From Eledone cirrhosa (lineage: Eukaryota), in the NCBI GenBank assembly GCA_964016885.1, contig OZ024743.1:264120001-264184000 (forward strand): DNA of 64,000 nucleotides, in the 5' to 3' direction. A program made the translations under genes and the position numbers. The notes under the pieces were generated by a model that was not told where the DNA came from, searched no databases, and worked only from the letters and a program-made list of their open reading frames with translations. This document shows positions 9,036-55,941 of this stretch, in pieces (position 1 is the stretch's first letter; each line of letters begins with the position of its first letter).

Positions 9036-9070
9036 AGTGGTCTTTCTTATCTTTTCCATTCCTTTTCAAC

Positions 9071-12984: not shown

Positions 12985-14950
12985 ATGGCTGAGCCACGCC
13001 CCCCAGCGATATGTCGGCTGTCGTGTGACAACGACGTAGAAGTTGAGTGGAGCGCTACAGCGAAATTAACACACATTGATAACACAAACACCACCACAAA
13101 CAAGGCAAACAAAGACACCAATGATACCAATAAGAACTCTAATTTTGAAAAAAACGACAGTAACAGCGACAACGAAAATACAGATAAAAAAACAAAAAAT
13201 AACAAATACAACAACAATATCAACACCACGAACATGAGAACAAATAGCGACAACACCAACAGCAACAATACCAACTGCACCGAGAACAACGGTGGCAACA
13301 AAGACAACACTGATAACAGCGACAGTGCTAACAACGACACCAACAAGAACAACGTCAACAACACCCCCAACGTAAACAAGACCACTTTCGCTGCGACACC
13401 AGCAAAAAAGAGGCCATGCTTCAACATGGACCTCTCAAACAAAGATGAAAAGTTGGCCCAGGCATGGAAGCTCATCAAGAAAGAGCAAACTTGGGCCAAC
13501 TTAACTGTCCCGGTAGAAGCTATTGAGGCAGTGGAGCGCAAAACGGTGCATTATAGATGCATCTCAGCACAAACCAAAAGGGTAGCGTTAATCCCACAAG
13601 AAGATGTCGAAGTCGCGCTGAGGTGCATAAAAAAAAAACACCCAGTACATAGAGAGGGGCAGACAGTACGGCACCATTTCGGTGTTGTTCAAGTCAGAAA
13701 CCCTCGCTATGAAACACGCTATGACTCCTTGCAAAACCAGCAAGGTCATAATGTACCCCTCCCACATGGGAAAAAGGACGGCCCGTCTCCGCATTCCCAG
13801 AATCCCACCAGGACTTGGCATATGGTGGCTTCTGGGATGTGTCATTGTGGAGGGGACGGATACAGTCCCTATAGAAGTGACCAGATCGGCCAGAGAGGAC
13901 TCGTCTGGGGTTGACCTGGATATCCTTCTGGAGATCAGGCCCGAGAATGTGAAGACAATCCCAGACCACATCCGCCTTCAGAATGGGACTGTCATTCACA
14001 TTATGACCGAAGGCAAAATGCCGCAGTGTTTTGTTTGTGGGGAAAAAACCTATTTGCGAGCCTTCTGCCCTCAACTGCTGAAAGAGGCAAGGGGTCGAAA
14101 GGCTCCACTGCTGCCGACACCGGGGCGAGGACCACAACCAACACCTGCACCGGCAAAACCACCAACAGCAACACCAATAGGAAGACCACCACCAACATTG
14201 ACCACCCAGGGGGGAAACGAGGAAAGCTGTCAAATTCCCCCCCCCCCCCCAATACACACACCAATAAAACCTTAAACATACATATAGACACAGACCCCTC
14301 ATCTACCAGTAGTGAAAATGAGGGAAATCCCAAATCCCCCAAAATACAAAAAAGGAAACACAAAAAGAAAAAAAAAACTCAACAAAGCACAAAAGCACCC
14401 ACAATAAAAAACGCAGACACCACCCACGCAAACATCTCTCCAATAACACCAACATCAACACCACCATCACCATCACCAGAATCCCACAAACGCAAACAAC
14501 CGAAACAGACGCAGGAACAAATATACACACAAACATCTGAAACCACAGACACCGCACTCACAACAAAACACAGATACAACCGAAACAACACCACGAAAAC
14601 CATCACCACAATAGCCACGCAAACAAATAAAATCACACCCACAAAACATACAAAACTTCGTGCTCGTCAGGAGGGCCAAAAAGGAACTGATGGCCCTCGT
14701 AGCACGAAGTGAAAATATACAAAAAGAGGGGGAAACTTTAAAATCGAGCACATTTCGCTTGCCGGAAGATTTGGTTCTGGTGCGAATGTCGCTCGACATA
14801 TTCAAAGAAATACGAGACAGCTTTCCTCGGGACGTGGGAACCCCGAACGTAAAACCCACTTCAAGACTTTTAAAGGGGTTCCCAAAAGAAACCCCACTAA
14901 CTATGGAGGTCGAACAACCCGACCTTCACAAGAGCCCGGAAGGTAAGTAA
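12985..14950 (+). pseudogene. Tx1 copy B ORF1 with zinc-knuckle remnant
   Basis: Frameshifted ORFs; CFVCGEKTYLRAFC is a CCHC knuckle with H replaced by Y; Asn-rich N-terminus. Confidence 0.75.
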
Positions 14951-14981
14951 ACCTTCCTCTCTCTCTGTTTAACCTGCCAAC

Positions 14982-17900
14982 ATGGCCGTATTAAGAGTAG
15001 GATGTTTAAATGTTCGAGGCCTGGGATCGTTCTGGAAGCAGGGTCACCTGTTCAACGACCTTAGGTCTATAGAAATGGATGTAATTGCAGTCAGCGAGAC
15101 CAGGATTTCCGACACGACGCACTAGCCCCCATTTTCGACGACTATCAGATGTTTGCATCTGTTAGCCGGCCGGGAATGGGAGGCGGGGTAGCAGTGCTGG
15201 TTTGGAAAGGCCTGGATCTCGCGGTAAGGTCGATCTTCCGGGACCCGGACGGAAAATTGGTGGTCCTGGACGTGAACAATAATGAAGGTGGTGCCTTTAG
15301 ACTGGTGGCCGTCTATGCTCCTACTGGGGCAGGACGGCCGGACTTCTTTAGACGCCTGGAAGCCTTTCTGGGTACGGCTCGCCCTTTACTGTTAGCGGGG
15401 GACTGGAACGGCATCTTAGATGCACGCTGGGACTGTGTGGGAGTATCCGATAGGAGCGGGGGTGCAAAAGCCTCAAGAACCTGATCAGCCAGTTCCAACT
15501 GTCTGACAGGTACTTACTAGATTTCCCTAATGCGCCAGTGTGGACCTGGGCTAACCGCATAGAGTCATCTAGATCGTATATAGACAGGATATTCATTAGG
15601 AAAATAGACAGAAATAGTGTAAGCTGTCCACGTTTTGAAACGGTCGCCTATTCAGATCACAAGTTTGTGATCTGTATGGTCGACCTAGATAAGACGCGTA
15701 GGTTAGGGCCTGGTTACTGGAAGCTAAACATGTCATTTCCGGCACGTAAGGCTTACAGGGACCAGGTCAACAATTTAGTTAAGAAAAAGTTGACAGGGGG
15801 AGTCGTCAACAATAGATGGTGGGGGGCTCTCAAAAGAGAGATTAGAGTAATGTTGATAGAGTTTAGCAAAGAAATAGCATTAGAGAAAAATAGAAAGGAG
15901 GGAGAGTTGGTAGATAAGTTAGACGAGACTATTGGTAGTGGCATTGCAACTGATGTGCTAGCGGCGAGAATGGCATTAGACCATTTCTTCAATGCGATAG
16001 ACGAAGGTTGCATTGTCAGAGCTAAGGCGCGTGCTCTGAGAAACGAGGGAACTAAAGCTGTTCGATGGGCCCGCGTGGCAGAGGCGCAGCGTGGTAATAA
16101 AACCACGATTCGGTCTTTGACAGACCGAGATGGGCTCGAGCTGAGCGATTCCAAGAGGATGTGTGAGGCCTTTCGCCAACATTTTGCTCGGTTGTTCGAG
16201 GGAAGTGGCGAGTCAGAGATGGTGGCGGACTTCAGTCCCTACCTCGATGGCTTGCCGCAACTCTCGACGGCTGATGCTGGGCGTTGCGAAAGGCCAATTA
16301 CTTCAGCCGGAGATTCAGGATGCCCTTGTAGGCTGCATGAGGTGCAAGTCACCCGGTTTGGATGGTCTGCCCTACGTGCTTTACGTAAACATGCCAGACT
16401 TGTTCTCCAATCTCCTCGAAACCCTCTACTGCAACTGGCAGCAAAACGGAAGTATTCCCAGTTCTGTGAGCCGGGGCGTAGTGACGCTGATAAGGAAAGA
16501 CGAGAACAAGAGGGTCACATTAGACAATTTCAGGCCCATAACTCTGCTCAACACAGAGTTTAAGATTTTGGCCAGGGTGTTAGCGAAGAGGTTGGCGCTT
16601 GTCGTCGGGGATTTGGTTGGGAAGGCGCAAACTTGCGCAATCACAACCAGGACCATACACGACAACCTCCACCTAATGCGATACATCATAGAGAGGGTAA
16701 TGTGTAAACCTGGCTTCGGTGGATCAATCGAAAGCATTCGATAGGGTCGACCATCGGTACCTGGAGGCTGTCCTCAAGGCGGCTGGCTTTGGCACCGTCT
16801 TCGGAAGCTGGATCGCTGCAATGCACAGCGGCACCTGCGCGATGGTCAAAATTAATGGCCACCACTCAGAACCGTTTTAGGTCTCCCGATCGGTCCGTCA
16901 AGGGTGCCTTCTCTCCTCCCTTCTGTACGTATTGACTCTCGAGCCTTTACTGCGGAAGCTGGAGCTGTTGCAGGGCATCCCGCTCGAACCGGGACGCGAA
17001 AAGGCTGTGTCGGCTTATGCGGACGACATCACCGTGATGGTGTCGGACACCTCAGAAATCGAGGTGGTCGGCAACTTATTGGAGGAATATGAAAGGTTGA
17101 CGGAAGCAAAACTTAACCCGGAAAAAGTCAGTAGGCTTGCAACTCGCCACCCGGAGAGGCAAGTCCATGCCGTCCAACAGCGTCGTTAGGCGCTGGACGG
17201 ACGGACAGTAAAGTTGCTAGGGGTTTGGTTCGGGCCAGATCTCCAGGTTGATAAGAATTGGTACGAGGTGACGGGCAGGGTAGTCAGTCTCACCCAGAAA
17301 TGGGCTGGGATAAAGCTATCACTGAAAGGTCGGGCGGAGGTGGCGAACGCGTACATCGCGTCCGTCATCTACTACCGTCTGACTGTCTTCCCTTTCCCCC
17401 GATCGCGCCTCGCCATCTTGGAGCGGCTCCTCTTCAAATTCTTGTGGAGGGGTCAGTTTCCGCTGGTGAGGCGGTCCATCTGCTGCCAGCACCCTCTACG
17501 TGGAGGGCTGGGCATGCCGTGGCTAATGATGAGCAGGCACGCGCTGAGGCAGCGGCATCTCCAGATATTCTGCCTAAACGGTGAACAGGTGTGGTCGCCG
17601 TATGTCAGACGGGCCTTTCCGCAGCTCGTTTCTTTGACTGAGTTGAAGTCCTGGGTCAAGAAGAGACCGAGACTGGGTGACTGGCATCTGTAATGTTGCC
17701 AGGCACTTACTGCCCTCTACCACGCGGGCAATGTGGTCAGTGGAACTTCCACTCTCGAGTTCTATAGAGGATTAGTGGTGGGCAGTGCGACGACGCACTC
17801 AGAGAGGCTTTGGGAGTCAACGAAATCGAATTAATCAGTCTGTACCGGAGGACTTTCGAGCCGGGGACGATGGATAATTTCCAAAAATCCCTCGCTTGGA

Positions 17901-18393
17901 AGTGCTACCGGGGGGCACTGCCGGTTCGAGATAAACTCTACAGGCACGGAAGTGCTGTCAGACGGACCTGCCCGAGATGCGCGCAGAGCGACGAAACCGT
18001 TCTGCACGCACTCGTCTAGTGTCCGTGCATTACTGACTTGTGGAGTTATGTTCAACAGCTGTTGTCGCGTGTAGAACGGATCCGGCTATCGGCCGAGTCC
18101 ATAGTGAAGATCAACCCGCCGCCTTCTTTTGGCTAGCAATTTTCTTTTGGCAGGCAATTTTCCTCTGTCTGGTGGCAGTAGCGAAAGAGGTTGTATGGTG
18201 GACGAGGTTGAAAGGACTGAAGACAGACACTTTTCTCTTCGGCCAATCCCTCATCAACCTTTTCAAGTTTCACTTGGAAAGGAAGGTGAGGGTGGAGAGA
18301 GAAGTGCTGCCCCCCAGTACATTTGCTGAAAGGTGGGTGAATGTGGCGAGAATGGCCCGTGTGAGTGGGCCTAATCTGGTCATGCGGCTGTAG
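14982..18393 (+). pseudogene. Tx1 copy B ORF2 (APE-RT-ZF), disrupted
   Basis: MAVLRVGCLNVRGL start; GDWN, SDH, SPGLDG, NFRPITLLN, AYADD, CPRC..H. Confidence 0.93.
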
Positions 18394-18682
18394 GTAGGTA
18401 AATTTGAAGAGGAGAGGGGTACTCTTCCAGGGTGCTCTCGAAGCGTCGGGTCGTTCAGGACTGGTGGGATACCTGGGCGAACCCTAGGTGGTCATTACCC
18501 CTATTGGGGGATTTTTTCTTGTTGTAATTTTACTGTTACTTTATTGTTACTTTGTTATTGTTACTTTTTTTATTCATATTGTTTACTCGATTTTTCTGTA
18601 AAACCCCACTGTCCCAGTCTTTTGTATTGTCCCCTATATGTCGGCCCTTGTGGCCAATAAATGAAATCATTATTATTAATAT

Positions 18683-18880
18683 TGGTGGATTGGCAGTATC
18701 GGTAGAGGGTCGGACGCCATGCTTTGACGTATGGAGTTACGGCCCTTGCCATTCTGAGTTCAAATCCCGTCGAGGTTAACTTTGCCTTTCATCCTTACGG
18801 GGTCGATAAAATAAAGTACCAGTAATGCACTAGGTAATTGCTGGCCTTGTGCCAAAAGTAGAAGCAATTATTATTATTAT
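18683..18880 (+). mobile_element. tRNA-type SINE with (ATT)n tail
   Basis: A-box-like TGGCAGTATCGGTAG, B-box-like GAGTTCAAATCC, ATT tail; close reverse copy at 27285-27470. Confidence 0.85.
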
Positions 18881-18889
18881 TGTTATTGT

Positions 18890-21800
18890 ACTTTGAGTCT
18901 CAGTCATTGATGTTAGTTAACTGGAAAGTTTGTTGAAATACATATCAAGCCGCTACCTGCAGCCTCAGATATTCAGGACGTATCGGAGGGTTCTTGCTGT
19001 TCCCAGCAAGCATGCCTTTTGAAGTGTTCCAAAAAGCGGGCAGGGCCCAATTTTCTATAACCATTCCTGGAAACTTTTTGAGATAGTACCTAGTGCGCCT
19101 ATGACAATCGGGAACACTTTGACTTCATGGCAGTTCCAAATCCTTTTTACCCCCCACTTTAAGTCCTGGTATCGGTTAATTTTCTCCCTCTCCTTCTCTT
19201 GCACTCTCGTGTCGAATGGGCAGGCCAAATCCACAATCAGGCACGATCTTTTTTTCTTGTCCAAAACCACCAGGTCAGGTCTATTGTTTTCTAATTTCTT
19301 ACCCGTCTGTATCCTAAAATCCCACAGCACTTTCACCTGATCGTTTTCTATCACCGACTCTGGCTTATGCTCATACCACTTCTCAGAATGTGGTAAATTG
19401 TTTACTTTGCATAGGTGCCAGTGGATCACCCTGCCCATCACATCATGTCTGCAGCCCTTATAGTGAGTCTGGGCTAGGTGTTTACACTCGGATACAATGT
19501 GAGCCACAGTCTCCTCTCTCTCTCCACAGATCTTGCACAGTGGGATAGCCTCCTCCTTGTAAATATGGTGTTTCAACCACTTCGTTTTGAGGGCCTGCAC
19601 TTGCGCAGCCATTAGCATTCCTTCTGTAGCCTTTGTAACGTCTCCTCTTTTCAACCAGTTCCATGTCTGTGGATCTCTGAATTCAGTTTTCTCCAAGAAG
19701 GTACTATGAAGGGATTTTTCATGAAGGCTGCTCTTTCTCCACTTTCTTATTTCCTCCTTGGACATCCTCTGGTCTATTGTCCTCTCATTCAGTACAACTC
19801 TAAGCATTGGCTACTTACTATCAGTCACGTATTTGTGTGGGTTGTTTTTCTCCATCTGAACACAGTCCTCTATGCTGATAAGACCTCTTCCATCTTCAGA
19901 TCTCCTTAAGTAGAGTCTATCGACATCACTCCTCTTGTGGAACATGTTGTAGATAGTCAATAGCTTCCTAGTCTTCCTATCCATTTCTTTTTGTTCAGCA
20001 ACATTCCATCTCAGAATTCCAGCACTGTACCTAATAATAGACACAGCTCGGGAATTTACTGCTCTTATGGCATTCCTACTGTTCAGATGTGACTTTAATA
20101 CGCTCCTTACTCTCCGAATGTATTCACATCTTATCAATTCCTTCATTTTTTTGTTCTTGATGTCATCAGCCTCCAGATCACCCAAATACTTGTATACTTC
20201 TTCAGTGTCAATTTCCTTTATCATCTCACCTGTTGGTACCTGGATTCCGTTGCTTCATCTGAATTTACCCCTCTTCATCACAAGGACTCAACACTTACTA
20301 ATACCAAATTGCATACATATATCATTGCTGAAAATACGGACAGTCTCAACAAGCACATCCAACTCCTTCTCACGCTTCCCGAAGAGCTTAAGATCGTCCA
20401 TAAAGAGGAGGTAATTGATGGTAAGCTCTCCCTTTCCCAACTTGTATCCTGCTCTCACTTTTCGCAGTATAATGGTCAGGAGCATCAGGGCAAGGACAAA
20501 CAACAGAGGGGACAGACTATCTCCCTGTAAGATACCTCTCTTGATCTTCCCGCCTCCTAATGATTCTCCAGCTGATCTTAACTCTGTTTTCCAGGACTTC
20601 ATACTTTTGCCCAACAACTGTCTGATGTTATCTGCCACCTTGAAGGTCTCTAGGCTTTTGGTGCTCCAAGAATGAGACACCATGTCAAATGCCTTTTTGA
20701 AGTCTATCCATCCCATGACAAGACCAGTGTGTCTCCTCTTGCAATTCCTCATTACCATCTTATCAATAAGTAACTGGTCCTTTGTACCACGGGACTTCTT
20801 TCTGCATACTTTCTGTTCGTCCGGTAACAAGTTGTTTGTGTGGAGGTGATGGTAGATTTCCTCAGACATAATGCTTGTCAACAGTTTCCACATTACGGAC
20901 AGACATTTGATAGGTCTATAGTTGGTAACATCATTACCCTTGATTCGGTCTTTCATTATCAGAACTGTGGTACCTTTTGTCAACCACTCTGGTACCTCAC
21001 CTGACATCAAGCAGTCATTGAACATGGTTGGCAGTTTCGGGTGGAGGGATGTTATATTTTTAATCCAATACCCCTGCACACCATCTGGGCCTGGTAATTT
21101 CCAGTTGGTTAGTTCTTTGGCCTGCCCCTTAAGAGTTTCAACTGTGATACTCAAATCAGTTTGTTGGTGTGCCTGTTCACTAACCTCCTTCTGTACTGCC
21201 TCAATCCACACTGCCTGGTCATCCTGCTCTCATATTCCTCTCCAGAATGTCTTAGTTTGTTCCGCCTCAGGGATCAAGTCGTTGTCTCTTTCTTTCCCTT
21301 CAAGCTGTCCAAACAGCATCTTCTGGTTGTTGTCAAATATGCGGTTCTATCTATACTGACTGACTCTGCTCTCGTTTCGCCTAATTCTTGCACTCTTTGC
21401 TACAATGCGTTGCTTCAGTTCCTCTATGATAATATTTAGCTTTTTCCTCCTAGTTTTGTAATTTATTTCCATTTTTAGTGTCTATGTGTTTTAGTGTCCC
21501 ATTCAGTAGGGACTCAAGCTTTCCAATTTCATTTCTCATTTACCTGATTTGTCCATTCAGTCGTTTCTTCCACCAAGGTTCTGATCTTTCTTGTTTGTTG
21601 TTTCCTCTCGCTTTTATGCCAAGTAATTTCCTCACCGCATTTGCTGTTGCTTTGAGGATATTGTTGCACTGGTGAAGGCTCCTCGCCTCAAGGTATGGGA
21701 TGACTTTGTTTACCTTAGCTGTTGTTTCTTTTAACTTTTTCCTGTCTACAAATCTTAATTTCATAGGTTTCCCATTATCATTGTCCAATTCATCTACCAC

Positions 21801-22742
21801 TAAGTTTAGGATATCAACCAAATCTTGTCCTAGCCCGTCAGCATTCATCTCCTCAAAGTCCGTATCTTTGTTCCAGGTTTTATTTATTTCAGCGTTCAGA
21901 TCATTGTCTGCTTCGGATGGTTCCTCCGTTCTATAAACCTCTTCACCTTCATTTCCCTCTGGCTTGTTTGCCTGGCATACTCCAGTCTCTATTTCCAACC
22001 TAATCTCTCTGCTCAGTTCCTCCAGTTCCAGCTCGCTTATCCACTCATTAGTTCTTATTACCCGAGCCTGCCCGGCCAATTTTTGTTCATCTAATTTAAA
22101 TAGACCAATCTCGTTCCAGATGTTATGCATCCGTTTCCTATAGCCTTTTTCCTTGGGGTTACTCTTCAGGTAACATTGCATAACAGTTCTATTCAATTCT
22201 TTCGTCCAGTTGGTTCTGGTCCCTTTCCTTCTTCTTCTTCCCCCGACACCAGGAGTACTTGGTTGACAACCAGGTCCCTGCTGCTGAGCCAGGGGGCATC
22301 TGCTGGGTGAGAGTCTGTCACATGACATTCCAGTCTCCACTTCACCGTTATTCGAACTGTTTAGGTTCGACATTTAAACACTCCTATCGAGGATTGGTGA
22401 ATGTATGGTTACATAACCACCGGTGATTTCATCAACTCCGGTGATTTCATCACCCCCGGTGATTTTAGTGTAGACGAACATAAATAAACAAACAAACAAA
22501 TAGGTAACCCCCCCCCCCCAAAAAAAAAAGAAAAAGTATATTTTCATTGTAATGTAATGTTTGAATGTCTGACTTAGTTTGTTTTTTTCCTTCTCTGTCT
22601 GTCTCTTTGTTTTTCTTTTCATTTTTCTTTTCTTTACGTTTTTCGTTGTTGCTGTGCTGTTTTGATTTTGATTTTTGGTTTTATTGATTTTTTGACCGGG
22701 TCATCAAATCAGTCTATTTATATCTTTTGATGCCTTCCTCTT
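18890..22742 (-). mobile_element. R4/Dong-type non-LTR retrotransposon (RT + CCHC + restriction-like endonuclease), full length, decayed
   Basis: PGPDG, QGDSLSP, LFMDD, CKICGE.EETVAHIVSEC, RPDLVV..IVDLACPFD..EK; flanked by TAA/ATT repeats on both sides. Confidence 0.93.
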
Positions 22743-22779
22743 ATTATTATTATTATTATTATGATTATTATTATTATTG

Positions 22780-23467
22780 TTCTTTGAGTCTCAGTCATTG
22801 ATGTTATTTAACTGGAAAGTTTGTTGAAATGAATATCAAGCCGCTACCTGCAGCCTCACATATTCAGGACGTATCGGAGGGTTCTTGCTGTTCCCAGCAA
22901 GCATGCCTTTTAAAGTGTTTCAAAAAGCGGGGCTGGACTAATCTTCTTTAACCATCCTTGGAAACTCTTTGAGATAGTACCTAGTGCGCCTATAACAATC
23001 GGGATGACCTTGTCTTCATGGTAGTTCCAAATCCTTTTTAACTCCCACTTTAAGTCCTGGTATCGCTTAATTTTCTCCTTCTCCTTTTCTTGCACTCACG
23101 TGTCAAATGGGCAGGCTACATCTACAATCACGCACGATCTTTTTTTCTTGTCCCAAACCACCAGGTTAGGCTTATTGTTTTCTAATTTCTTCTTCGTCTG
23201 TATCATAAAATCCCATAACACCTTCACCTGATCGTTTTCTATCACCCACTCTGGCTTATGCTCATACCATTTTTCACAATGTGGTAAATTGTTTACTTTG
23301 CATAGATGCCAGTGGATCACCCTGCCCATCACATCATGTCTCCAGCCTTTATAGTGAGTCTGGGCTAGGTGTTTACACTCGGATACAATGTGAGCCACAG
23401 TCTCCGCTCTCTCCACAGATCTTACACAGGGAGCTAGCCTCCTCCTTGTAAATATGGTGTTTCACCC

Positions 23468-23469
<2 letters not shown>
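22780..23469 (-). mobile_element. 5'-truncated copy of the same Dong-type family
   Basis: CCHC + RLE region and the same 3' UTR as 18890; 5' end abuts (CTT)n. Confidence 0.9.
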
Positions 23470-23498
<29 letters not shown>

Positions 23499-23540
23499 CT
23501 TCTTCTTCTTCTTCTTCTTCTTCTTCTTCTTCTTCTTCTT

Positions 23541-25470: not shown

Positions 25471-25593
<123 letters not shown>

Positions 25594-25689
25594 GTAGAAC
25601 ACTGGAAGGTAATATCTGTAGTGGTAGAGCACTCAGTCCATGGGACGAGTTAGGTAGAAGTGCTTACACAACAGTAAGTTCACCATACC

Positions 25690-25725
25690 GAGAACAATTG
25701 TTTCACCTTAGCGGATCCTCAGCTC
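25690..25725 (-). ncRNA. Type I hammerhead ribozyme (inverted pLTR copy)
   Basis: Reverse strand GAG-CTGAGGA-TCCGCTAAGGT-GAAA-CAATTG-TT-CTC. Confidence 0.7.
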
Positions 25726-25782
25726 GTAATGGACATGGTTATACAGAACAGGAAGGACAACCGTACGAACGCGCATACGCAG

Positions 25783-26516
25783 AAACGGCGTTAGCTAACA
25801 GCGGCTTCTCGCAACCTATCACTTACTCTCCCACTAACAACAACAGCAATAAGAAAAGAAAGCGTAATAATAGACAAACTATCTGGTTCTGGCCTCCCTT
25901 CTCACTCAACGTTAAAACAGATATAGGCAAAACATTTCTAGCCCTCTTAGATAGATACTTTCCCATAGGTCATAAATACCGACACAAAGTAAAACTAGGA
26001 TACTCCTGCGCTAAGAACATGAAGACCCACATCACCAACAGCCCTAAGAGCAACGCCCCACCAGGGTGCTCTTACCGTAAGCCCGAAGCTTGTCGCCTTC
26101 AACAGCAATGCAACACATCTGCTGTAGTTTATGAAGCTGTGATCACTTCCAACCGACCAAATCAACCACAGGAGGTCAAATCATATGTGGGTATGGGCGA
26201 GGGCCGATTTAAGGAACGCTTCCTGAACTACCAGTTGACCTTTAGATACCCGGACAGACGTTCATCCACGCAACTCGCGGGCCACGTATGGTCCCTCAAG
26301 GACTCAAGTATATACTGCTCCATTCAATGGAAAGCCATCACGAAGTCCAAGCCATATGCAAGGGGAAATCTGTCGTGTGGACTATGTATTGATGAACGAT
26401 TAAATATTCAAAAGAGATTACATAATAGTGATTGCCTAAACTCGAGGATTGAATTCTTGACACGTTGTCCACACGTCTGGAAACACCTCTTACATAACTA
26501 CAAAGCTCCGCATTGA
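25783..26516 (+). pseudogene. PLE linker + GIY-YIG endonuclease
   Basis: [60 protein letters not shown]. Confidence 0.88.
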
Positions 26517-26685
26517 ATTACAACAACATCGTAATTTTCTTATCAACTAGAAACTTTCGGACTTTCGCAGTTATCTCCCTTACAACTCTCGCACGCAATT
26601 TAGTATTGCCTGTGTGAAGTGATCGTGTGTGCGCTTGCACGTTCGTACGGTTGTCCTTCCTGTTCCGTATAACCATGTCCATTAA

Positions 26686-26721
26686 GAGCTGAGGAACCGC
26701 TAAGGTGAAACAATTGTTCTC
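26686..26721 (+). ncRNA. Minimal type I hammerhead ribozyme in the PLE 3' pLTR
   Basis: Stem I GAG/CTC, core CTGAGGA, stem II ACC-GCTAA-GGT, GAAA, palindromic stem III CAATTG, GUU site. Confidence 0.82.
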
Positions 26722-26750
26722 GGTATGGTGAAGTAACTGTTGTGTAACCA

Positions 26751-26817
<67 letters not shown>

Positions 26818-27284: not shown

Positions 27285-27470
27285 TGTTTCTACGTTAGGC
27301 ACAAGACCAGCAATTATCCAGTGCATTACTGGTACTTTATTTTATCGACCCCGTAAGGATGAAAGGCAAAGTCAACCCCGGCGGGATTTGAACTCAGATC
27401 GTAAAGGGACGTAACTATGCTGGAAAGCATGGCGTCCGACCCTCTACCGATACTGCCAATCCACCGCCCT
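27285..27470 (-). mobile_element. tRNA-type SINE
   Basis: Reverse complement of 18683-18880; (TAA)n on both sides. Confidence 0.85.
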
Positions 27471-27492
27471 AATAATAATAATAATAATAATA

Positions 27493-29385
27493 AGTCCCGT
27501 GGTACAAAAGACCAGTTACTTATTGATAATAATTGTAATGAGTAATTGCAGGAGGAGGCACACTGGTCTTGCCATGGAATGGATAGATTACAAAAAAGCA
27601 TTCGACATGGTACCTCATTCTTGGATAACCAAAAGCCTAGAGATCTTCAAGGTGGCAGACAACATCAGACAGTTGTTGAGCAAAAGTATGAAGTTCTGGA
27701 AAACAGAGTTAACATCAGGTGGAGAATCCTTGGGAGACGTGAAGATCAAGAGAGGTATCTTCCAGGGAGATAGTTTGTCCCCTCTGCTGTTTGTCCTTGC
27801 CCTGATAACCTGTCCGTTATATTGCGAAAAGTGAGAGCAGGATACAAGTTGAGAAGAGGAGAGATTACCATCAATCACCTCCTCTTCATGGACGATCTTA
27901 AACTCTTTGGGAAGAGTGAGAAGGAGATGGATGTACTTGTTGACACTGTTCGTGTTTTCAGCAATTATATATGTATGGAATTCGGTATTAATAAGTGTGG
28001 AGTCCTAGTGATGAAGTGGGGCAAATTGAGCAGAAGCAACGGAATCCAGGTACAACAGTTGAGATGATAAAGAAAATTGACACTGAAGAGGGCTATAAAT
28101 ATTTAGGTGTTCTGGAGACAGCTGACATCAAAACAAAAAAATGAAGGAATCGATAAGATCTGTGTATATAAGGAGAGTAAGGAGCGTATTAAAATAATAT
28201 GTAAATAGTAGGAATGTCATAAGTGCAGTAAATTCCCGAGCTGTGTTTATTATTAGGTAGAGTGCGGGAATTCTGAAATCGAATGCTGCTGAACAAAAAG
28301 AAATGGATAGGAAGACAAGGAAACTATTGACTATCTACATGTCCCACAAGAGGAGTGATGTCGATAGACTCTACTTAAAGAGATCTGAAGGTGTGAGTGG
28401 TCTTATCAGCATAGAGGACTGTGTTCAGATGGAGAAAAACACCCTACATAAATATGTGACTGACAGTAGGGCGCGATACTCAAAATTGTACTGAGTAGAC
28501 AATAGACCAGGGGATGTCCAAGGAGGAAATAACAATAAGGAGGAAGAGAAACCTTCATGAAAAACCCATTCATAGCACCTTCTTTAAGAAAACGGAATTT
28601 AGAGATCCACAGACATGGAACTGGTTAAAAAGGGGAGACGTTAAAAAGGTACTGAAGGAATGCTAATGGCTGCGCAAGAGCAAGGTCTCAGAATGAAGTG
28701 GGTGAAACACCATAATGACAAGGAAGCTAGGTCACTGTGTAGGATCTGTGGAGAGAGAGAGCGGAGACTGTGGCTCACATTGTATCCGAGTGTAAACACC
28801 TAGCCCAGACTGACTATGAAGGCTGGAGATCAGATGTGATAGGCAGGGTGATCCAGTGGCATCTATGCAAAGTAAACAATTGACCACATTGTGAGAAGTG
28901 GTATGAGCATAAGCCATAGTCGCTCATAGAAAACGATCAGGTGAAGTTGGTAGGGGATTTTAGGATACAGGCGGACAAGAAATTAGAACACAATAGGCCT
29001 GATCTGGTGGTTTTGGACAAGGAAAAAGATCATGCCTGATTGTAGATGTAACCTGCCCATTTGACACGGGAGTGCAAGAAAAGGAAAGAGAGAAAATTAA
29101 CCGATACCACCAAGATTTAAAGAGGGTGTTAAAAATGATTTGGAACTGCCATGTAATCAAGGCTGTCACGATTGTCATTGGCGCAATAGGTACTATCTCA
29201 AAGAGTTTCCAAGGATGGTAAAAGAAGATTAGTCCAGCGCCGCTTTTTGGAACACTTCAAAAGGCATGCTTGCTGGGAACAGCAAGAACCCTCCGATACG
29301 TCCTGAATGTCTGAGGCTGCAGGTAGCGACTTGATATTCATTTCAACAAACTTTCCCGTTAAATAACATCAATGACTGAGACTCA
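27493..29385 (+). mobile_element. 5'-truncated, more decayed Dong-type copy
   Basis: WIDYKKAFD, QGDSLSP, LFMDD, RLE remnants; same 3' UTR ...GACTGAGACTCAAA-(TAA)n. Confidence 0.9.
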
Positions 29386-30497
29386 AATAATAATAATTAT
29401 AATAATAATAATAATAATAATAATAATTAGGGAAGAAGACGCATGTGGTGGATAGAAGGTCATGAAATCGCTCCCGTAAGTTTTTGATTTTTAACATATT
29501 TAAATCAATTGTGAAATAACAATTCTTAGTACAAATGATACATAAAGTACCAGACTCAAGTCTCAGAAAAATTCGGATCCACAATATATTGTTTTATCGC
29601 TCAAATATTCAATTTTGTATTATACATTTTCAAAAAAGAAAATGGTTATAAATGGAAGAAAACCCCCTCTGTCTACACTATATAGAACAGCCAAATAACA
29701 GCAATTTCACCAACACCACCTATCCCATCACTCCTCTGTGTACACTAAATACAACAACCAGATAATGGCAATTTCACCACCACCACCACCAACCCCAGCA
29801 TAATAATTATAATTACTATTATTATTGTCTCAAGTTTTCACAAAATGTTTAATTCCAATATTAAGTAAAAATATGTCAACACATATATTAAACATACGCG
29901 ACTAACCGCATAGATTCACCGATCAAACAAACTACAGTCTATTCAACAAAACTCAGTAACGACAACGCAATCACTATAGTCACCGCCGCCACCACTCCAT
30001 CCATCATTGCTGCCACTATCCCATCACCGCCGCCACCACTCCTTCATTGCTACCACTGCTATTCCCCCATTACCTTCTGTTAACTTACGAAAGGGGAAGG
30101 TGCGGTATCACTAGACAATATTAATAAACAATATTAATATTTAATTTTGGATCAGGAATGTTGGAGTCGAAAAGGAGGAAAATGGCAAAATGACTAAATA
30201 GCTAAATAGCTAAAGATAATTTTACCACCAACACCACCACCCGACCACGCTAAAAATTCTGGTCAAGTTGCCTCAACCTTTATTTCTACTTCAACTTCAG
30301 CACCATCACTACAGTACTACGATCACATCACCACCACCACTGCCTCATTATCGCTACCGCCGCTATTCTCTCCCACTACCTCCTGCTAGGGACTACTAGC
30401 ACAGCACCACCACCACAACCACCACCACTGCCTCATTATCACTACCGCCGCTAATATCTCCCACTACCTCCTGCTACATCGTAGTGTCCCCACTAAA

Positions 30498-33400
30498 AGA
30501 GGAAGGCATCAAAATATATAAATAGACTGAATTGATGACCCGGTCAAAATCAAAAAACCAAAATCAAAATCAAAGCAGCACAGCAACAACGAAAAACGTA
30601 AAGAAAAGAAAAATGAAGAGAAGAACAAACAGACGGACAGAGAAGGAAAAAAACAAACTAAGTCAAACATTCAAACATTACATTACAATGAAACATGCTT
30701 ATTCATTTTTTTTTTTTGCCTGTTTGTTTGTTTGTTTGTTCGTCTACAGCGTGATAATGCCACACAAAAATCACCGGGAGTGAAGAAATCACCGGAGGTG
30801 ATGAAATCACCAGTGGTTATATAACCATACATTCGTCAATCCTCGATAAGAGTGTTTAAATGTCGAACCTAAACAGTTCGAATAACGGTGAAGTGGAGAC
30901 TGGAATGTCATGTGACAGACTCTCACCCAACAGGTGCTCCCTGGCTCAGCAGCAGGGACCTGGCTGTCAACCAAATACTGCTGGTGTCGGAGGAAGAAGA
31001 AGAAGGAAAGGGACCAGAACCAACTGGACGAAAGCATTGAATAGAACTGTTATGCAATGTTACCTGAAGAGTAACCACCAAGAAGAAAGGCTATAGCAAA
31101 CGGATGCATAACATCTGGAACGAGATTGGTCTATTTAAATTAGATGAACAAAAATTGGCTGGGCAGGCTCGGGTAATAAGAACTAATGGGTGGATAAGCG
31201 AGCTGAAACTGGAGGAACTGAGCAGAGAGATTAAGTTGGAAATGGAGAGTGGAGTATGCCAGGCAAACGAGCCAGTGGGAAAGGAAGGTGAAGAGGTCGA
31301 GAGAACGGAGGAACCATCCGAAGCAGACAATGATCTGAATGCTGAAATAAATAATACCTGGAACAGAGATACGGCCACTGTGGAGATTAATGCTGACGGG
31401 CTAGGACAAGATTTGATGATATCCTAAACTTAGTGGTAGAAGAATTGAACAATGATAGTGGGAAACCTATGAACCTAAGATTTGTAGACAGGAAAATGTT
31501 AAAAGAAACAACAGCTAAGGTAAACAAAGTCATCCCATACATTGAAGCGAGGAGCCTTCACCAGTGCAACAATATCCTCAAAGCAACAGCAAATGCGGTG
31601 AGGAAATTACTTGGTATAAAAGCGAGAGGAAACAACAAACAAGAAAGATCAGAACCTTGGTGGAAGAAACGACTGAGTGGTCAAATCAGGTAAATGAGAA
31701 ATGACATTGGAAAGCTTGAGTCCCTACTGAATGGGACACTAAAAAACATAGACACTAAAAATAGACTGCAAATAATGTACAAAACTTGGAGGAAAAAGCT
31801 AATTATTATCATAGAGGAACTGAAGCAACGCATTGTAGCAAAGAGTGCAAAAATCAGGCGATACGAGAACAGAGTCAGTCAGTATAGACATAACCACATG
31901 TTTGACAACAACCAGAAGATGCTGTTTGGACAGCTTGAAGGGAAAGAAAGAGGCAACGACTTGATCTCTGAGGCGGAACAAACAAAAACATTCTGGAGAG
32001 GAATATGGGAGCAGGATGTTCAACATAATGACCAGGCAGTGTGGATTGAGACAGTACAGAAGGAGATTAGTGAACAGGCACACCAACACACTGATTTGAG
32101 TATCACAGTTGAAACTCTTAAGAGGCAGGCCAAAAAACTAACCAACTGGAAATCACCAGGCCCAGATGGTGTGCAGGGGTATTGGATTAAAAATATAACA
32201 CCCCTCCACCCGAAACTGCCAACCATGTTCAATGACTGCTTGATGTCAGGTGAGGTACCAGAGTGGTTGACAAAAGGTACCATAGTTCTGATAATGAAAG
32301 ACCGAATCAGGGGTAATGATGTTTCCAACTATAGACCTATCACATGTCTGTCCGTAATGTGGAAACTGTTGACAAGCATTATGTCTGAGGAAATCTACCA
32401 TCACCTCCACACAAACAACCTGTTACCGGACGAACAGAAAGTATACCGAAAGAAGTCCCGTGGTACAAAGGACCAGTTACTTATTGATAAGATGGTAATG
32501 AGGAATTGCAAGAGGAGACACACTGGTCTTGGCATGGGATGGATAGACTACGAAAAAAGGCATTTGACATGGTGTCTCATACTTGGACCACCAAAAGCCT
32601 GGAGATCTTCAAGGTGGCAGATAATATCAGACAGTTGTTGGGCAAAAGTATGAAGTCCTGGGAAACAGAGTTAACATCAGCTGGAGAATCCTTGGGAAGC
32701 GTGAAGATCAAGAGATGTAACTTCCAGGGAGATAGTCTGTCCCCTCTGTTGTTTGTCCTTGCCCTGATGCCCCTGACCAGTATACTGCGAAAAGTGAGAG
32801 CAGGATACAGGTTGGGAAAGGGAGAGCTTACCATCAATCACGACCTCTTCATGGACGATCTTAAGCACTTCGGGAAGAGTGAGAAGGAGTTGGATGTGCT
32901 TGTTGACACTGTCCGTATTTTCAGCAATGATATATGTATGCAATTTGGTATTAATAAGTGTGGAACCCTTGTGATGAAGAGGGGTAAATTGAGCAGGAGT
33001 AACGGAATCCAGGTACGAACAGGTGAGATGATAAAGGAAATTGACACTGAAGAAGGATACAAGTAATTGGGTGTTCTGGAGGCTGATGACATCAAGAACA
33101 AAAAAAATGAAGGAATTAATAAGAACTGAATACATTCGGAGAATAAGGAGCGTATTAAAGTCACATCTGAACAGTAGGAATGCCATAAGTGCAGTAAATT
33201 CCCGAGCTGTGTCTATTATTAGGTACAGTGCGGGAATTCTGAGATGGAATGTTGCTGAACAAAAAGAAATGGAAGCTATTGAGTATCTACAACATGTTCC
33301 ACAAGAGGAGTGATGTCGATAGATTCTACTTAAGGAGATCTGAGGGTGGAAGAGGTCTTATCAGCATAGAGGCCTGTGTTCAGATGGAAAAAAACAACCT

Positions 33401-34342
33401 ACACAAATACGTGACTGATAGTAAGGAGCCAATGCTCAGAGTTGTACTGAAGGAGAGGACAATAGTCCAGGGGATGTCCAAGGAGGAAATAACATCAAGG
33501 AGAAAGAGCAGCCTTCATGAAAAATCCCTTCATAGTACCTTCTTTGAGAAAACTGAATTCAGAGATCCACAGACATGGAACTGGTTGAAAAGAGGAGACC
33601 TTAAAAAGGCTACAGAAGGAATCTTAATGGCTGCGCAAGAGCAGGCCCTCAAAAGGAAGTGGTTGAAACACCATATTTACAAGGAGGAGGCTAGCCCACT
33701 GTGCAGCATCTGTGGAGAGAGAGAGGAGTCTGTGGCTCACATTGTATCCGAGTGTAAACACCTAGCCCAGACTCACTATAAGGGCTGGAGACCTGATGGG
33801 CAGGGTGATCCACTGGCACCTATGCAAAGTAAACAATTTACAACATTCTGAGAAGTGGTATGAGCATAAGCCAGAGTCGGTGATAGAAAACGATCAGGTG
33901 AAAGTGCTGTGGGATTTTAGGATACAGACGGACAAGAAACTGTAACACAATAGACCTGACCTGGTGGTTGTGAACAAAGAAAAAAGATCGTGCCTGATTG
34001 TGGATGTGGCCAGCCCATTCGACTCGAGAGTGCAAGAGAAGGAGAGGGAGAAAATTAACCGATACCAGGACTTAAAGTGGGAGGTAAAAAGGATTTGGAA
34101 CTGCCATGAAGTCAAAGTGGTCCCGATTGTCATAGGCGCACTAGGTACTATCTCAAAAAGTTTCCAGGGATGGTTAAAGAAAATTTGCCCCTTCACGCTT
34201 TTTGGAACGCTTCAAAAGGCATGGTTGTTGGGAACAGCAAGAACGCTCCGATACGTCCTGAACATCTGAGGCTGCAGGTAGTGGCTTGATATTCATTTCG
34301 ACAAACTTTCCAGTTAAATAACATCAATGACTGAGACTCAAA

Positions 34343-34344
<2 letters not shown>
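30498..34344 (+). mobile_element. Full-length Dong-type element (coding region 30860-34269, disrupted)
   Basis: Same 5' end (AGAGGAAGGCATCAAAA), coding sequence and 3' UTR as 18890-22742; (TAA)n then (GAA)n tail. Confidence 0.93.
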
Positions 34345-34427
<83 letters not shown>

Positions 34428-34839
34428 AAGAAGAAACTATTCTTAGTACAAATGGGACATAAAGCACCAGGCTTCGCTCTCAGGAAATGTACACGAATAA
34501 TATCCTGATATATCGCTCAAATATTCGATTTTGTATTATGAATTTTATATTGAAAAAAGTAAATGGTTATAAATGGAAGAAAACCCCCTCTGTCTACACT
34601 ATATAGAACAGCCAAATAACAACAATTTCACCACAACAACAACCTAGATACACCACCTATCCCACCACCCCTCTGTGTACACTAAATACAACAGCCAGAT
34701 AACGGCAATTTCACCACCAGCACCACCAATCCCAGCATAATAATAATAATTACTATTATTGTATCTCAAGGTTTCTCAAAATGTTTAATTCAAATATTAT
34801 GGAAATATGTCAACACATATATTAAACATACGCGACATA

Positions 34840-37288
34840 CGTGGAGTGAAAATGAAAAAACAAAGGAATTCCCACAAGAAATATACTTGGCAAGAGAACA
34901 TCAATTGCCAAATAAACCTTCTCCGATCTGACATAGAAATTTTAACAAACTACAATGTAGGTGATCATGTTAAACAAACTAAACTTAGAAAATTGAAAAG
35001 AAAATACAGTATAAAATCAAAAAGTGACATAGACATGCTGATAGAAATAATCAAGCAAAAAGTGTCGGCCAAAGCTGCTCGTATAAGGCGCTTTGAAAAA
35101 CGATCTAGATTCTATAAGGACAATAACATGTTCAAAAACAACCTAAGAAACTTCTACAGAAAAATTGGCAAGTCAACAATAACTGCTAAATCAATACCAC
35201 CCAAGGAGGAAATGCAATAATTCTTTGAAAAAATATGGGCCGAAGAAAAAGTTCATAATATACATGCTCCATGGATAGACAGACAAATGAAAGATACAGC
35301 TCATCTTGAGCAACAAACATGGGAAAATATAACAGTTGAACAGTTGCGTTTGGCTCTTAGAAAAACCAGAAAATTGAAATCCCCAGGAAAAGACAAAATA
35401 CCAAATTTTGGGATAAATGCCAACACAGAGTCTCATGAGCTGTTAGCCCTACTTTACAATGAAATAGTTAAGGAGACAGAAAAGATACCATCATGGCTAG
35501 TTAACGGCATTACATTCCTACTTCCGAAGAATGATGAGACAAACAATCCCAAAAATTACAGACCGATAACTTACTTGACCACAATGTATAACATTTTTAG
35601 ATCAGTCCTAACTGAATATACATATGACTACCTGAGAACAAATGATCTATTTCTCAATGAGCAGAAAGCGTGTAAACGAGGCTCATATGGCTGGAAAGGT
35701 CAGCTTTTGGTTAACAAAATGATACTGGAAGATTGTCATAATAGACACAAAATCTATCAATTGCATGGATAGATTATAAAAAAGCATTCGATAGTTTGCC
35801 ACACAGTTGGATTGAAAAATGTTTAGAGATTTTCAAAATATCCCCCGTTGTCAGGAGGTTCCTGTCATTCAGTATGAAGACATGGAAAACGACAATCCTT
35901 TTGAATAGTGAAAAAAAATCACTGGAATCTGGAGAAGTTAATATTAATTGTGGAATGTTTCAGGGTGACTCTTTATCACCGCTTTTATTCTGCATCGCAC
36001 TTATACCATTAAGTAAAATGCTCAATGAAACAAAACATGAATATAAAGTCTATGACAAAACCATTAATCACTGTTCTACATGGATGACCTGAAACTATTT
36101 GCAAAAAATGATGAACAATTGCAAGGGCCATTATCCACTGTGGAGCAGTTCATTGAGGACATTAAAATGGAGATTGGACTAGATAAATGCGCCAAAGCAA
36201 TGTCCACCAGAGAAAAGCTGCTGAAAAGTTCAGACATTAATCTTGATCGGGGGAATGTGATAAGAGAACTTGATCAAGATGAAAGATTTCAAATATCTAA
36301 GTGTTTGTGAAGGAGACGGAATCAAGCACTCAACAATGAGGGAAAGGATAAGGAAGGAATGTTACCGCATAGTAAGAGCAATCTTAAGAACGGAATTGAA
36401 TGCAAGGAATAGGATCGATGCATTAAACACGCTTGCCATACCAGTAGTAACCTACAGTTACAATGTCATCAACTGGTGAAATCGGAGACTGAAGGACTGA
36501 TTATATCAGCACAAGATCAGTGTCTGCCAACAAAAAAATTACCAAGCCAACATAATAAAAAATGGATGCAGCCCATTATGCCGTGTATGCAAAAAACAAC
36601 CAGAGACCATTGACCATATAATTTCAATGTGCAGTCCTATAGCTCCAACCGAATACCTAAACAGGCATGACAGAGCTGCACAATACATACATTGGATAAT
36701 GTGTAAGCATTTTGACCTGCCCCATCAAAAGAATTGGTGGGAGCATCAACCACCTCCCATACTTGAAAAAGATCACATCTCAATCTTGTGGAACTTTAGC
36801 ATCCAAACAGACCGAACAATAGATGCAAATAGACCTGATATAATACTGAACGACTTTAAAACGAGGATATGCCTGCTAATTGATATGTCCGTTCTAATAG
36901 ACAAGAATGTATCTATAAAAGCATTTGAAAAATTGAGCAAGTATAAGACTTGGAGATTGAAATTGGAAAAATTTGGAAATTGAGAACTAAAACAATACCA
37001 TTGGTTGTAGGCGCTCTGGGAATGATACCTAAGGGGTCTAATGATTACTTATCGCAAATCCCAGAAACCCGCGAATAGGAGAAATACAAAAGATAGTACT
37101 AATGGGAACTGCCCATATACTAAGGAAGATTCTGTCAATATAAGTACATCACAAGTCTAAACACTAAAGATGCATGTGTGAGTATGTATGTTCTTTCTTG
37201 AACATGGCGGACCTTGTTGTCTCTTGAGGTCACTGGTTGTGACTTACTGATAACTCGTATGAACATAAAGCAAGATAAATGCAACTGT
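34840..37288 (+). mobile_element. Second, divergent R4/Dong-type family; 5'-truncated with an internal deletion
   Basis: SPGKDKI, NYRPIT, QGDSLSP, MDDLKLF, RHD, WNFSIQTDRTIDANRPDI..IDMSV..EK; (TAA)n tail. Confidence 0.88.
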
Positions 37289-37304: not shown

Positions 37305-40300
37305 ATGATTTCTTTATTGGCCACAAGGGCTGATATCAAGAAAAACATCACAGACGGAACAGGACGGTACGGTGTGGGTTTTGTGCGTGTAAATATTTTT
37401 ATTATTTATATAAGAAAAGAAAAAAGACATAAAACATATATATATATAAACAATAAAATGAAAATTGAAACAATGAAAAATTCCCCAATAGGGGGGAAAC
37501 CTCCGAGGGTTACTCGTGGCGAAAACCACACAAAAGAACACGGCCACCCTGAGGGCAAGCGCCCTCTCTCAATTTTTCCATCTCTCAAACTACAGACGTA
37601 TATTCACTCGGACCATTCTCACTACATTCACCCACCTTTCAACAAACTTGCTAGAAAGCAGCACTTGCCTCTCCACCCTGATTTTCCTCTTCAAGTAAAC
37701 TTGAAAAAGTTAATTAGGGATTCGCCGAAGAGAAAAGTGTTTGTCTTTAATCCTTTTAACTTTGTCCACCACACAATCTCTTTCGCCATGGCCACCAGGC
37801 AGATGAAAACCGCCTGCCCTTCCTCCTCAAAGGAAGACGGTGAGACCATCTGCACAATGGACTCAGTCGACAACCGGATCAGTCCCACGCGACAGCAACT
37901 GTTCGACATAGCTCCACAAGTCAGCAATACTCGGGCACTGAACGAGTGCGTGCACAACGGTTTCGTCGCTATGCGCGAATCTCGGACAGGCTCGGCTGAC
38001 GGCACTTCCGTGCCTGTAGAGCTCATCTCGAACCGACAGCGCTCCCCGGTAGCACTGCCAGGCCAGGGATTTTTGGAAGTTATACATAGGCCCCGGAAGA
38101 GAGCAAACAGCTGATCTTCTTCGACGCCCAGGATCTCTCCGAGAATGTCGTCGCTCTTCCCCTCCACTAGTCCTCTATAGAACGCCGAGGTGGATGTTCC
38201 ACCGATATTGGTGCCCAACTGGGAGAGGGCAGTGAGCGCCTGGAGACATTCCAGTTTCCAAGCGCTATCCCTCGGTCTTTTTCTGACCCAGGACTGCAGA
38301 TCCGTCAAGGAGACGAGCTGTGGGAAAATGTGCCTGGCGAACGGCGACCACACCCGTTCACCATCAAAGAAGCACCAGAGATGTCGCAGCCTCAGCGCAT
38401 GTTTCCGCATCATCAGCCATGGCATGCCCAGTCATCCACGCAACGGGTGTTGACAGCAGATGGATCGTCTGACCACGGGAGCGCGTCCCTTCCACAAAAA
38501 GCGGAAGAGGAGGCGCTCCATTTTGGTGAGAGTTGGGCTGGAGCAAGTGACGACGGTCAGGCGGTAGCAGATAACGGATGCGATGTACACATTCGCCACC
38601 TCCGCCCGGCTTTTCAGGGACAGCTTCCTCTCAGCCCATTTCTGGGTGAGGGAGGCCACCCTGCTCGTCACCTCGTTTCAGTTTTTCTCCATCTGGAGGT
38701 CCGGTCCGAACCAGACCCCGAGCAATTTAACCGGTCCCTCCGTCCAACGGCCCACGACGCTGTCGGACGGCATGGACTTGCCTCTCCAGGAGCCTAGCTG
38801 CAAGCCCACCGACTTTTCCTGGTCTATCTTTGCTCCTGTCACCGCTTCGTATTCCTTGAGAGTGGTGCCGAGTATCTGGACGTGTCTGGTGCCCGACACC
38901 ACCACGGTGACGTCGTCAGCGTAAGCCGACTCGGATTTCCCGCCTCCTAGTTCGCGTGGGACGACCCTCATCACCCCAGTTTGTGCAGTAACGGCTCGAG
39001 AGCCTATATGTACAAGAGGGACGAGAGGGGACAACCCTGGCGGACTGAGCGCATGATGCTGAACGGCTGCGACAGGTGACCGTTCACCCTCACAACTGAG
39101 CAGATGTCGCTGTACTTTGCTGCGATCCAACCCCTGAAAACGGGCCCAAAACCGGCTGCCTCGAGGGGCGCCGCCAGGTACCGATAGCCGACCCTATTGA
39201 ATGCTTTGGATTGATCCAAGTTGATCAGGGCCCCACCCTTGCCAGGTTCCTTAACCACCCTCTCTACGATGTATCGCATGAGGTGGAGGTTGTCGTGTAT
39301 GGATCTGTCCGGAATGGCGCATGTCTGCGCCTCTCCCACCCGACCCTTGACGACAAGCGCCAACCTTGTTGCTAACACCTTGGCCAAAATTTTGAACTCT
39401 GTGTTTAGCAGGATTATGGGCCTGAAATTATCAATAACATCCCCCTTGTTCGGGTCTTTTCTCAGCAGCGCCACTGCTCCCCAGCTCACAAAGTTGGGAA
39501 TGCTCCCGTTCTGCTGCCAGTTGCAGTAGACGTCTGCCAAGAGGTCACCGAACAAGTCTGGCCTAAATGCATTAAGCTCGTAGAGCAGACCTTCTAAACC
39601 TGGCGATTTACCTCTTGTGCAGTTAGCCATCGCTTCCTGTATTTCACCGGCTGTTATTGGCTTTTCGGAACACTGTGCTGCGGTCGTCGGAGCCGAGGCG
39701 GTCCGTCGGGGTATGCACTGAAATGCATGCCCCTATCCGGGTCGCCGCCGCTCCCGAATAGTTCAGCAAAGTGCTGCTGAAAAGCTTGACACATCCGCTC
39801 GGGTTCGAGCATCACGCACCCGTTTTGGTCAGGCAAAGACCGAATTGTGGCTTTGTTGCCACGTCGCGCCTCGGCCACCCGGGCCCATTGGACGGCTTTT
39901 GTCCCCTCGTGTTTCAGAGCACGCGCTCTAGATCTGACAACGCAGCCTTCGTGTTTTGCGTTGAAGAATTGGTCAAGTGCCAATCTCACCGCTAGCACAT
40001 CGGTTGCGATGCCTGTCCTAAACGCCTCTTCTAGCTTTCTGACTAGCTCTCCCTCTACTCTATTTTCCTCTATCACTACTCCTTTGCTAAACCTAATCGA
40101 CTCTACTTTAATTGCCCTTTTCAGGGCGAACCACCACCTGTTGTTGACGACCGCTCCCGTCAACGCCCGCTTAACTAATACGCTAATCCGGTCTCTGTAG
40201 GCCTTGCGCGCCGGGATAGACGCGTTCAGCTTCCAGTAACCAGGCCCTTGTCTATGAAGTCTGTCTATGTCGATCTACAGATCACAAATTTGTGGTCTGT

Positions 40301-43503: not shown

Positions 43504-43523
43504 TTATATATATATAAATATAT

Positions 43524-55866: not shown

Positions 55867-55941
55867 TTTGCTGATACGAATCTAGCTTCGTTTCACCACT
55901 TATATGTGCAGTATCAGTTCACAGGATCCTCAGTCAGCAAA
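55867..55941 (-). ncRNA. Type I hammerhead ribozyme
   Basis: Reverse strand TTTGCTGA-CTGAGGA-(weak stem II)-GAAA-CGAAGCTAGATTCG-TA-TCAGCAAA. Confidence 0.8.

Follow-up and report, generated by a model that had tools for sequence, protein, structure and literature searches.

Two truncated copies of a Hydra-like element in the window

The window, the whole stretch of 64,000 nucleotides of Eledone cirrhosa contig OZ024743.1 that was analysed, contains two 5'-truncated copies of one retroelement family. Copy 1, on the plus strand, consists of a 3' remnant of the ORF with the linker, the CxCX5C region, the endonuclease and the stop codon (25785–26516), followed by a 3' UTR, or pLTR, that ends in (TA)n (26517–26752). 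An inverted 5' arm on the minus strand (25590–25787), made up of the last ~128 nt of the pLTR and a 74-nt tail, precedes the remnant and adjoins (TA)n. Copy 2 belongs to the same subfamily and lies on the minus strand (53432–54772), where it retains the 3' half of the RT, the endonuclease and the 3' UTR, with a mutated hammerhead core. At its 5' junction an inverted 68-nt piece of UTR (54775–54840, plus strand) is fused in frame to the RT by chance. The chimeric frame of 261 codons found there (54028–54813, minus strand), in which the end of the antisense peptide discussed below heads the RT via the inverted UTR piece, was likewise taken as a chance junction. The two copies begin at element positions 1587 and 1232 of 2571, respectively, and the 5' part of the ORF is missing from both, as had been predicted. 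An A-to-G burst was looked for in both copies and none was found.

Several other repeats were observed in the window. Beside the 5' junction of copy 2, and outside the element, is a 247-bp direct repeat of 95% identity (54840–55085 and 55322–55568), and a second direct repeat pair occupies 55576–55875 and 56125–56424. A third, different Hydra-like family is represented at 58388–60570 (plus strand) by an element whose stem II is unusually long and whose core, CUGAAGA, is at 60409; the genome contains at least 150 matches, and open frames of 740–780 aa occur in many of them. Remnants of at least two types of non-LTR retrotransposon were recognised by eye from translations (7700–18400, 18800–23500, 27400–37000 and 37700–42900), and a tandem array with a 36/72-nt period lies at 43451–44326.

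A first look at the 3.0-Gb genome gave 1979 candidates for the family of copies 1 and 2, and 84 further loci were retrieved as a sample. The full unit is 2571 nt long, with a 224-nt 5' UTR, a 702-aa ORF and a 238-nt 3' UTR, and the optional tail is the first 74 nt of the 5' UTR. The unit is therefore less than 3 kb, and its single ORF encodes an RT and then a C-terminal endonuclease. The endonuclease was called by eye from VIY..YVG and Cys/His motifs; Pfam gave no GIY-YIG match in the family's own 702-aa protein and matched GIY-YIG only for homolog P0002. The family protein has RWR at aa 37 and DKT at aa 113, the latter also present in most homologs displayed, and contains no DKG or DKA. A CxCX5C linker, CxxC and CxH surround conserved E and N residues (aa 554, 657 and 687). 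The targets are (TA)n, as 73 of 111 pLTR ends pass into TA either directly or after the tail. Inverted 5' arms are made often by these elements, and no relatives of the element were found in viral contigs.

Based on the C-terminal endonuclease, RWR, DKT, CxCX5C and TA targets, we assign the element to the Hydra clade of PLEs, by motifs and architecture matched to the available part of Craig et al. (2021, PMC8557442). The original prediction had called the element Naiad-type. Naiads share with it microsatellite targets, pLTRs and an occurrence in cephalopods, but in the accessible portion of PMC8557442 they are described as having an N-terminal endonuclease, DKA and no canonical hammerhead, none of which fits an element that has a C-terminal endonuclease and DKT instead. 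Neptune was rejected as well, as DKG and a CX2-5CxxC finger would be expected and DKT and CxCX5C were present.

Hammerhead-like motif and 3' ends of the element

The UTR of copy 1 contains a minimal type I hammerhead-like motif (26686–26721, plus strand), with a CUGAGGA core from 26689, GAAA and a palindromic loop III. It is sense to the real ORF, in agreement with the original prediction. At the gathering threshold Rfam gave no matches within the 64-kb window, the MFE fold of the hammerhead-like region differs from the hammerhead layout, and folding of the whole pLTR gave no signal (z −0.52). By analogy with the layout published in PMC4209133, as far as the accessible text gives it, the cut is predicted after about 26718.

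The 3' ends of the pLTR (n = 111) were of several kinds: 44 ran directly into TA, 29 did so after the 74-nt tail, 25 continued into the 5' UTR and 13 were other. Genomic 3' ends of the family thereby lie at two positions beyond the predicted cut, one about 30 nt and the other about 105 nt away.

Some further motifs were seen in the junctions of relatives. Two GCUC..GAGC hairpins and a GAGCAC motif lie between the hammerhead and the start codon in the L120, L123, L132, L149, L161, L179 and L205 junctions, and a related motif is present in the tail of this family (25627–25634). In most lineages (junction loci L109–L212) about 200–250 nt separate the hammerhead core from the KNIP motif that follows it, and in most families of this genome about 300–350 nt.

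The antisense frame of the pLTR is not a gene

Both UTRs carry a 77-codon stop-to-stop frame antisense to the element (26518–26751, minus strand, in copy 1 and 53433–53666, plus strand, in copy 2), and the peptide quoted in the original prediction is present. That prediction held the frame to be conserved between diverged copies and its peptide to resemble the pre-RT segment. The copies are in fact 91% identical (21 of 234 nt differ), with 18 non-synonymous codon differences versus one synonymous. Because the differences are few and of this kind, the shared open frame represents inheritance, not conservation. In simulations a frame survived 10 random substitutions 68% of the time. By chance, the antisense strand showed a frame of 77 codons or longer in 3.2% of 5000 dinucleotide shuffles, and such a frame in any of the six reading frames in 7.3%; with trinucleotide shuffles the length of the antisense frame had a p value of 0.089.

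Among 76 whole pLTR copies, a sample that includes 9 loci chosen for likeness to copy 1, the antisense frame reached at least 70 codons in 25. On a tree of 55 copies, 10 of the 14 that belong to the window's subclade had a frame of at least 72 codons, and so did 2 of 41 others. Five shared indels lie inside the frame, each common to 13–30 of the 55 copies, with sizes of 1 nt (15 copies), 1 nt (24), 1–2 nt (30), 1–2 nt (18) and 12–14 nt (13), so that the frame is frequently broken by frameshifts shared in sister subfamilies. By contrast, no shared indels occurred among the same 55 copies in the final 1030 nt of the real ORF. Shared variants in that region were 38 synonymous to 21 non-synonymous, and singletons 161 to 519; the region is under purifying selection. 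The comparison of synonymous and non-synonymous changes that the original prediction had proposed for the antisense frame came out neutral in the 21 in-frame copies, with 30 synonymous changes, 104 non-synonymous changes and 6 stops versus 36, 97 and 6.5 expected, which is a weak test, since inserted copies drift regardless.

The motif named in the original prediction, DM..NI.F with DKT, does exist in the homologs of this clade. The resemblance of the antisense peptides to it was not borne out: on a profile of the pre-RT segment built from 119 proteins the true segment reaches 93.3 bits and the antisense peptides −1.3 and 0.1 bits (p 0.94 and 0.48 against shuffles), and frameshift-tolerant matching to the profile gave z values of −0.4 and 0.7. 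Searches with the antisense peptide gave nothing in Pfam and no significant match to the element's own protein. A sense-frame match to aa 12–33 (p = 0.003 uncorrected, the best of 12 tests) was taken as chance. For 32 relatives, the antisense match to the pre-RT profile had a mean z of 0.25 ± 0.20, and no antisense peptide was common to their UTRs. Their antisense frames were somewhat long, p falling below 0.05 for 5 of 32; the Fisher p was 0.0014 for dinucleotide and 0.079 for trinucleotide shuffles. We infer that complementarity to coding sequence lengthens them as a side effect.

Together, the shared frameshifts in sister subfamilies, with none in the real ORF, and profile scores at the level of shuffles indicate that the antisense frame is not a gene; it is non-coding, and an accident of one subfamily. 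The peptide MDMVIRN is the antisense reading of the UTR strand predicted to pair with the ORF start (26658–26683), and it echoes the sequence MDLYELD of the ORF itself. This echo probably explains the coding-like look of the antisense peptide.

Complementarity between the UTR and the ORF start across the clade

The original prediction had also proposed that the UTR is complementary to the 5' part of the ORF. This was supported for codons ~1–35, and clade-wide, but not for the pre-RT segment. The alignment it had suggested, of the reverse-complemented UTR of this family to its own ORF, returned nothing (p = 0.79), and in a duplex scan of the whole UTR against 11 ORF windows the pre-RT segment was no better than shuffles.

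The relatives comprised 98 loci, 20 from the same genome and 78 from metagenomes, of which 49 combined a complete ORF with a hammerhead core; 32 were distinct and 3 lacked an anchor. Hydra-like elements in contigs filed as bacterial (L204–L216) came from sponge and bivalve symbiont bins, and are probably host contamination. The UTRs of the relatives are unrelated to each other in sequence and length. In the five best alignments of reversed UTRs, the ORF match always starts within the first ~45 nt. When own and other ORFs were permuted (30 sequences, 34 windows), the ORF-start windows had excesses of 19.1 and 16.6 (p = 0.0002), and the excess in the remaining 32 antisense windows was at most 6.3. 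The matching stretch of UTR lies directly 5' of the hammerhead core.

Fixed windows, chosen after seeing the discovery data, were then defined as UTR −70 to −3 from the core and ORF nt ~1–110, with one sequence per cluster and with loci that had no core, or less than 70 nt before it, excluded. The UTRs matched their own ORF start better than those of other lineages with a Z of 9.1 in the discovery set (n = 22) and of 4.4 (p = 5e-5) in 12 previously unused, held-out lineages. Shuffling of both strands at the ORF start gave Stouffer values of 9.8 and 4.2 for the two sets, and four other ORF windows, including the pre-RT segment, at most 1.6 in size. The held-out permutation also raised two control windows, to Z 2.8 (pre-RT) and 1.9; these were not repeated by the shuffles, in which the held-out pre-RT window reached only 1.3. 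In 13 of 34 lineages the ORF start was the best partner of the 14–18 windows compared, where 1.9 were expected. In addition, within 10 clusters of close relatives a UTR's own partner beat swapped partners (Z 4.1, with control windows at 1.3, −0.4 and −2.0), and junction folds beat all 6 shuffles in 12 of 22 lineages.

The signal was uneven between lineages, with z above 2 in 16 of 34 and at most 2 in 18. Changes on both sides of a pair were few (4/34, 4/26 and 1/18 pairs), an alignment of 7 sequences contained no double changes within the helix, and one change from G-C to A-U was seen between the own-genome relatives L091 and L096. A G-U strand test did not tell the folding strand apart (p = 0.27–0.73), and a comparison of duplexes by strand gave excesses of 7.9 and 4.9 for sense and 6.4 and 4.7 for antisense. 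A sense-strand excess was also present at ORF offsets 540–780; in the windows checked (660 and 720) it was driven by one locus, L119, whose 'UTR' contains a duplicate of the ORF and which stayed in every test. The lesser excesses of the sense strand at other places may reflect common composition.

These comparisons of sequence lead us to consider the long-range complementarity between UTR and ORF start very probably real for the clade. It is specific to each lineage, occupies a fixed place and recurs in the held-out set.

The predicted helix in this family

The predicted partner of the UTR strand at 26658–26683 (plus strand) is ORF nt −1 to +20, which covers the start codon and codons 1–7; pair probabilities were mostly 0.7–0.94 in one junction fold. 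The ORF partner is absent from the truncated copy 1; copy 2 carries an identical UTR strand (53501–53526, minus strand). The helix of this family is short and its support moderate (z 2.5 by double shuffles). By alignment the family ranks 6 of 30, its two duplex windows had z values of 1.7 and −0.2, and 1 of 6 shuffles outdid a longer junction fold. Here the ORF start comes second among the partners in the element, at −19.2 kcal/mol versus −20.8 for a site in the endonuclease region. Between subfamilies, changes in the UTR strand weaken the duplex, which persists at about −14 kcal/mol instead of about −19, and seven other own-genome copies from four further groups had z values of −0.4 to 1.8. 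Among real junctions, the start codon was paired at 0.69 at least in 15 of 23. On balance, we lean towards the complementarity being present in this family also.

A possible clamp of the cleaved RNA ends

The reading we prefer is that the antisense frame is a non-coding accident, that the UTR 5' of the hammerhead is complementary to the first codons and that the predicted helix likely clamps the cleaved ends; taken as a whole, we regard it as evenly balanced between right and wrong. For the role as an end clamp in itself, which we put forward as a hypothesis, our confidence falls somewhat short of even. If the RNA is cut at both hammerheads, the observed 3'-end points would sit near its 5' end, and a reverse transcriptase starting there would have to cross to the 3' end, either around a ligated circle or by an end-to-end jump, because those start points are near the 5' end of a doubly cut RNA. 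The predicted helix, which would join the UTR to the ORF start next to hammerhead helix I, could hold both RNA ends together, and copying of more than one unit would then yield the direct 5' pLTR and the optional tail. The full model, in which Hydra-clade PLEs copy via end-joined or circular RNA, a UTR strand co-evolving with the first codons clamps the hammerhead-cut ends, and the RT rounds the junction to build the tandem pLTR and tail, is more tentative still, and we think it has the lesser chance of being correct.

A clamp fits the available account in PMC4209133, where the RNA is proposed to be cleaved, ligated into circles and copied for more than one unit. It also fits the internal start sites reported in the accessible part of Frangieh et al. 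(2024, PMC11167929). Counting against it, the same portion of PMC11167929 describes hammerhead cleavage as dispensable for insertion of the Poseidon PAc in vitro. The clamp is also weakened because many full-length copies of our family have a 5' pLTR too short to contain the predicted ORF-pairing UTR strand.

The helix may instead be real and control translation or the timing of the ribozyme, an explanation that we consider unlikely, though not remotely so. In a tandem read-through RNA it would enclose the hammerhead and the 5' UTR, and would hide the first codons until cleavage or protein binding. Its cover of the start codon in this family and in L091/L096 would suit such a role, as would the helix abutting or overlapping hammerhead helix I in several lineages and the need of the PAc hammerhead for protein in cleavage (PMC11167929, in the part available). 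It accords less well with the paired stretch lying 40–110 nt downstream of the start codon in many lineages, and with the ORF +10 window being stronger than the −30 window in the duplex test.

That the complementarity is a by-product of replication is less probable again. Template switching would repeatedly place a reversed copy of the ORF start in the UTR, and the copy would then decay without function. The frequency of inverted 5' arms in these elements and the lack of a G-U strand bias are in keeping with this, and the advantage of own over swapped partners would also be expected from recent copying. However, no lineage has a fresh copy, the longest perfect complementary run among 34 lineages being 15 nt and the median 7, and the stretch occupies the same place beside the hammerhead in UTRs that are otherwise unrelated. 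Finally, a functional antisense peptide, or a relic of one, related to the pre-RT segment is very improbable, as the open frame in the window's subclade and the long frames of relatives (with the Fisher values given above) stand against its near absence from the other copies, the frameshifts shared by sister subfamilies, pre-RT scores at shuffle level whether or not frameshifts are allowed, neutral change in the weak test of in-frame copies and nothing common among the relatives' peptides.

Comparison with known systems

Like the Hydra clade, as characterised in the available part of PMC8557442, the element has less than 3 kb, one ORF, a C-terminal endonuclease, an RWK-like motif, DKT, CxCX5C, CxxC and CxH, a hammerhead-like motif, (TA)n targets and tandem and inverted pLTRs with a tail. 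It differs in the length of the tail, 74 nt here versus 30–40 in that clade, for which the same text describes no pairing between UTR and ORF start. The hammerhead-like motif shares its type I core and palindromic helix III with the hammerheads of PMC4209133, whose accessible sections name no end-joining structure; the descriptor used there leaves out loop 1 as well as the closing stems. As in the Poseidon PAc, two start sites downstream of the hammerhead define the tail, but that element's hammerhead overlaps with the start of the ORF, its main substrate was uncut RNA, and no long-range UTR helix is described in the portion of PMC11167929 at hand. Pairing of the UTR with the ORF start was not found described in the available parts of PMC8557442, PMC4209133, PMC11167929, PMC3846280 and bioRxiv 10.64898/2026.07.22.740005; Hydra hammerheads are drawn in the supplements of PMC8557442, which could bear on whether the pairing is new. 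The origin of the tandem pLTRs and tails of PLEs and the purpose of the hammerhead are treated as open in PMC4209133 and PMC11167929, as far as these texts were accessible.

With a helix that links the ORF start to the 3' UTR, a circular or end-jumping template model could be tested on a concrete, mutable structure, and if the clamp is true, it would supply the structural part that the circular-template model of PLE transposition lacks. More generally, a coding-looking antisense frame in such UTRs can be the shadow of RNA pairing and not a gene.

In flaviviruses, 5'-3' cyclisation brings a stretch of the 3' UTR into pairing with the start of the coding region, and the polymerase thereby reaches across the ends. 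The predicted helix would be alike in joining a 3' UTR to the start of its coding region. The two systems differ in that flaviviruses are RNA viruses with conserved short motifs and an RNA-dependent polymerase, whereas here the pairing sequence is lineage-specific and imperfect, and lies beside a ribozyme motif.
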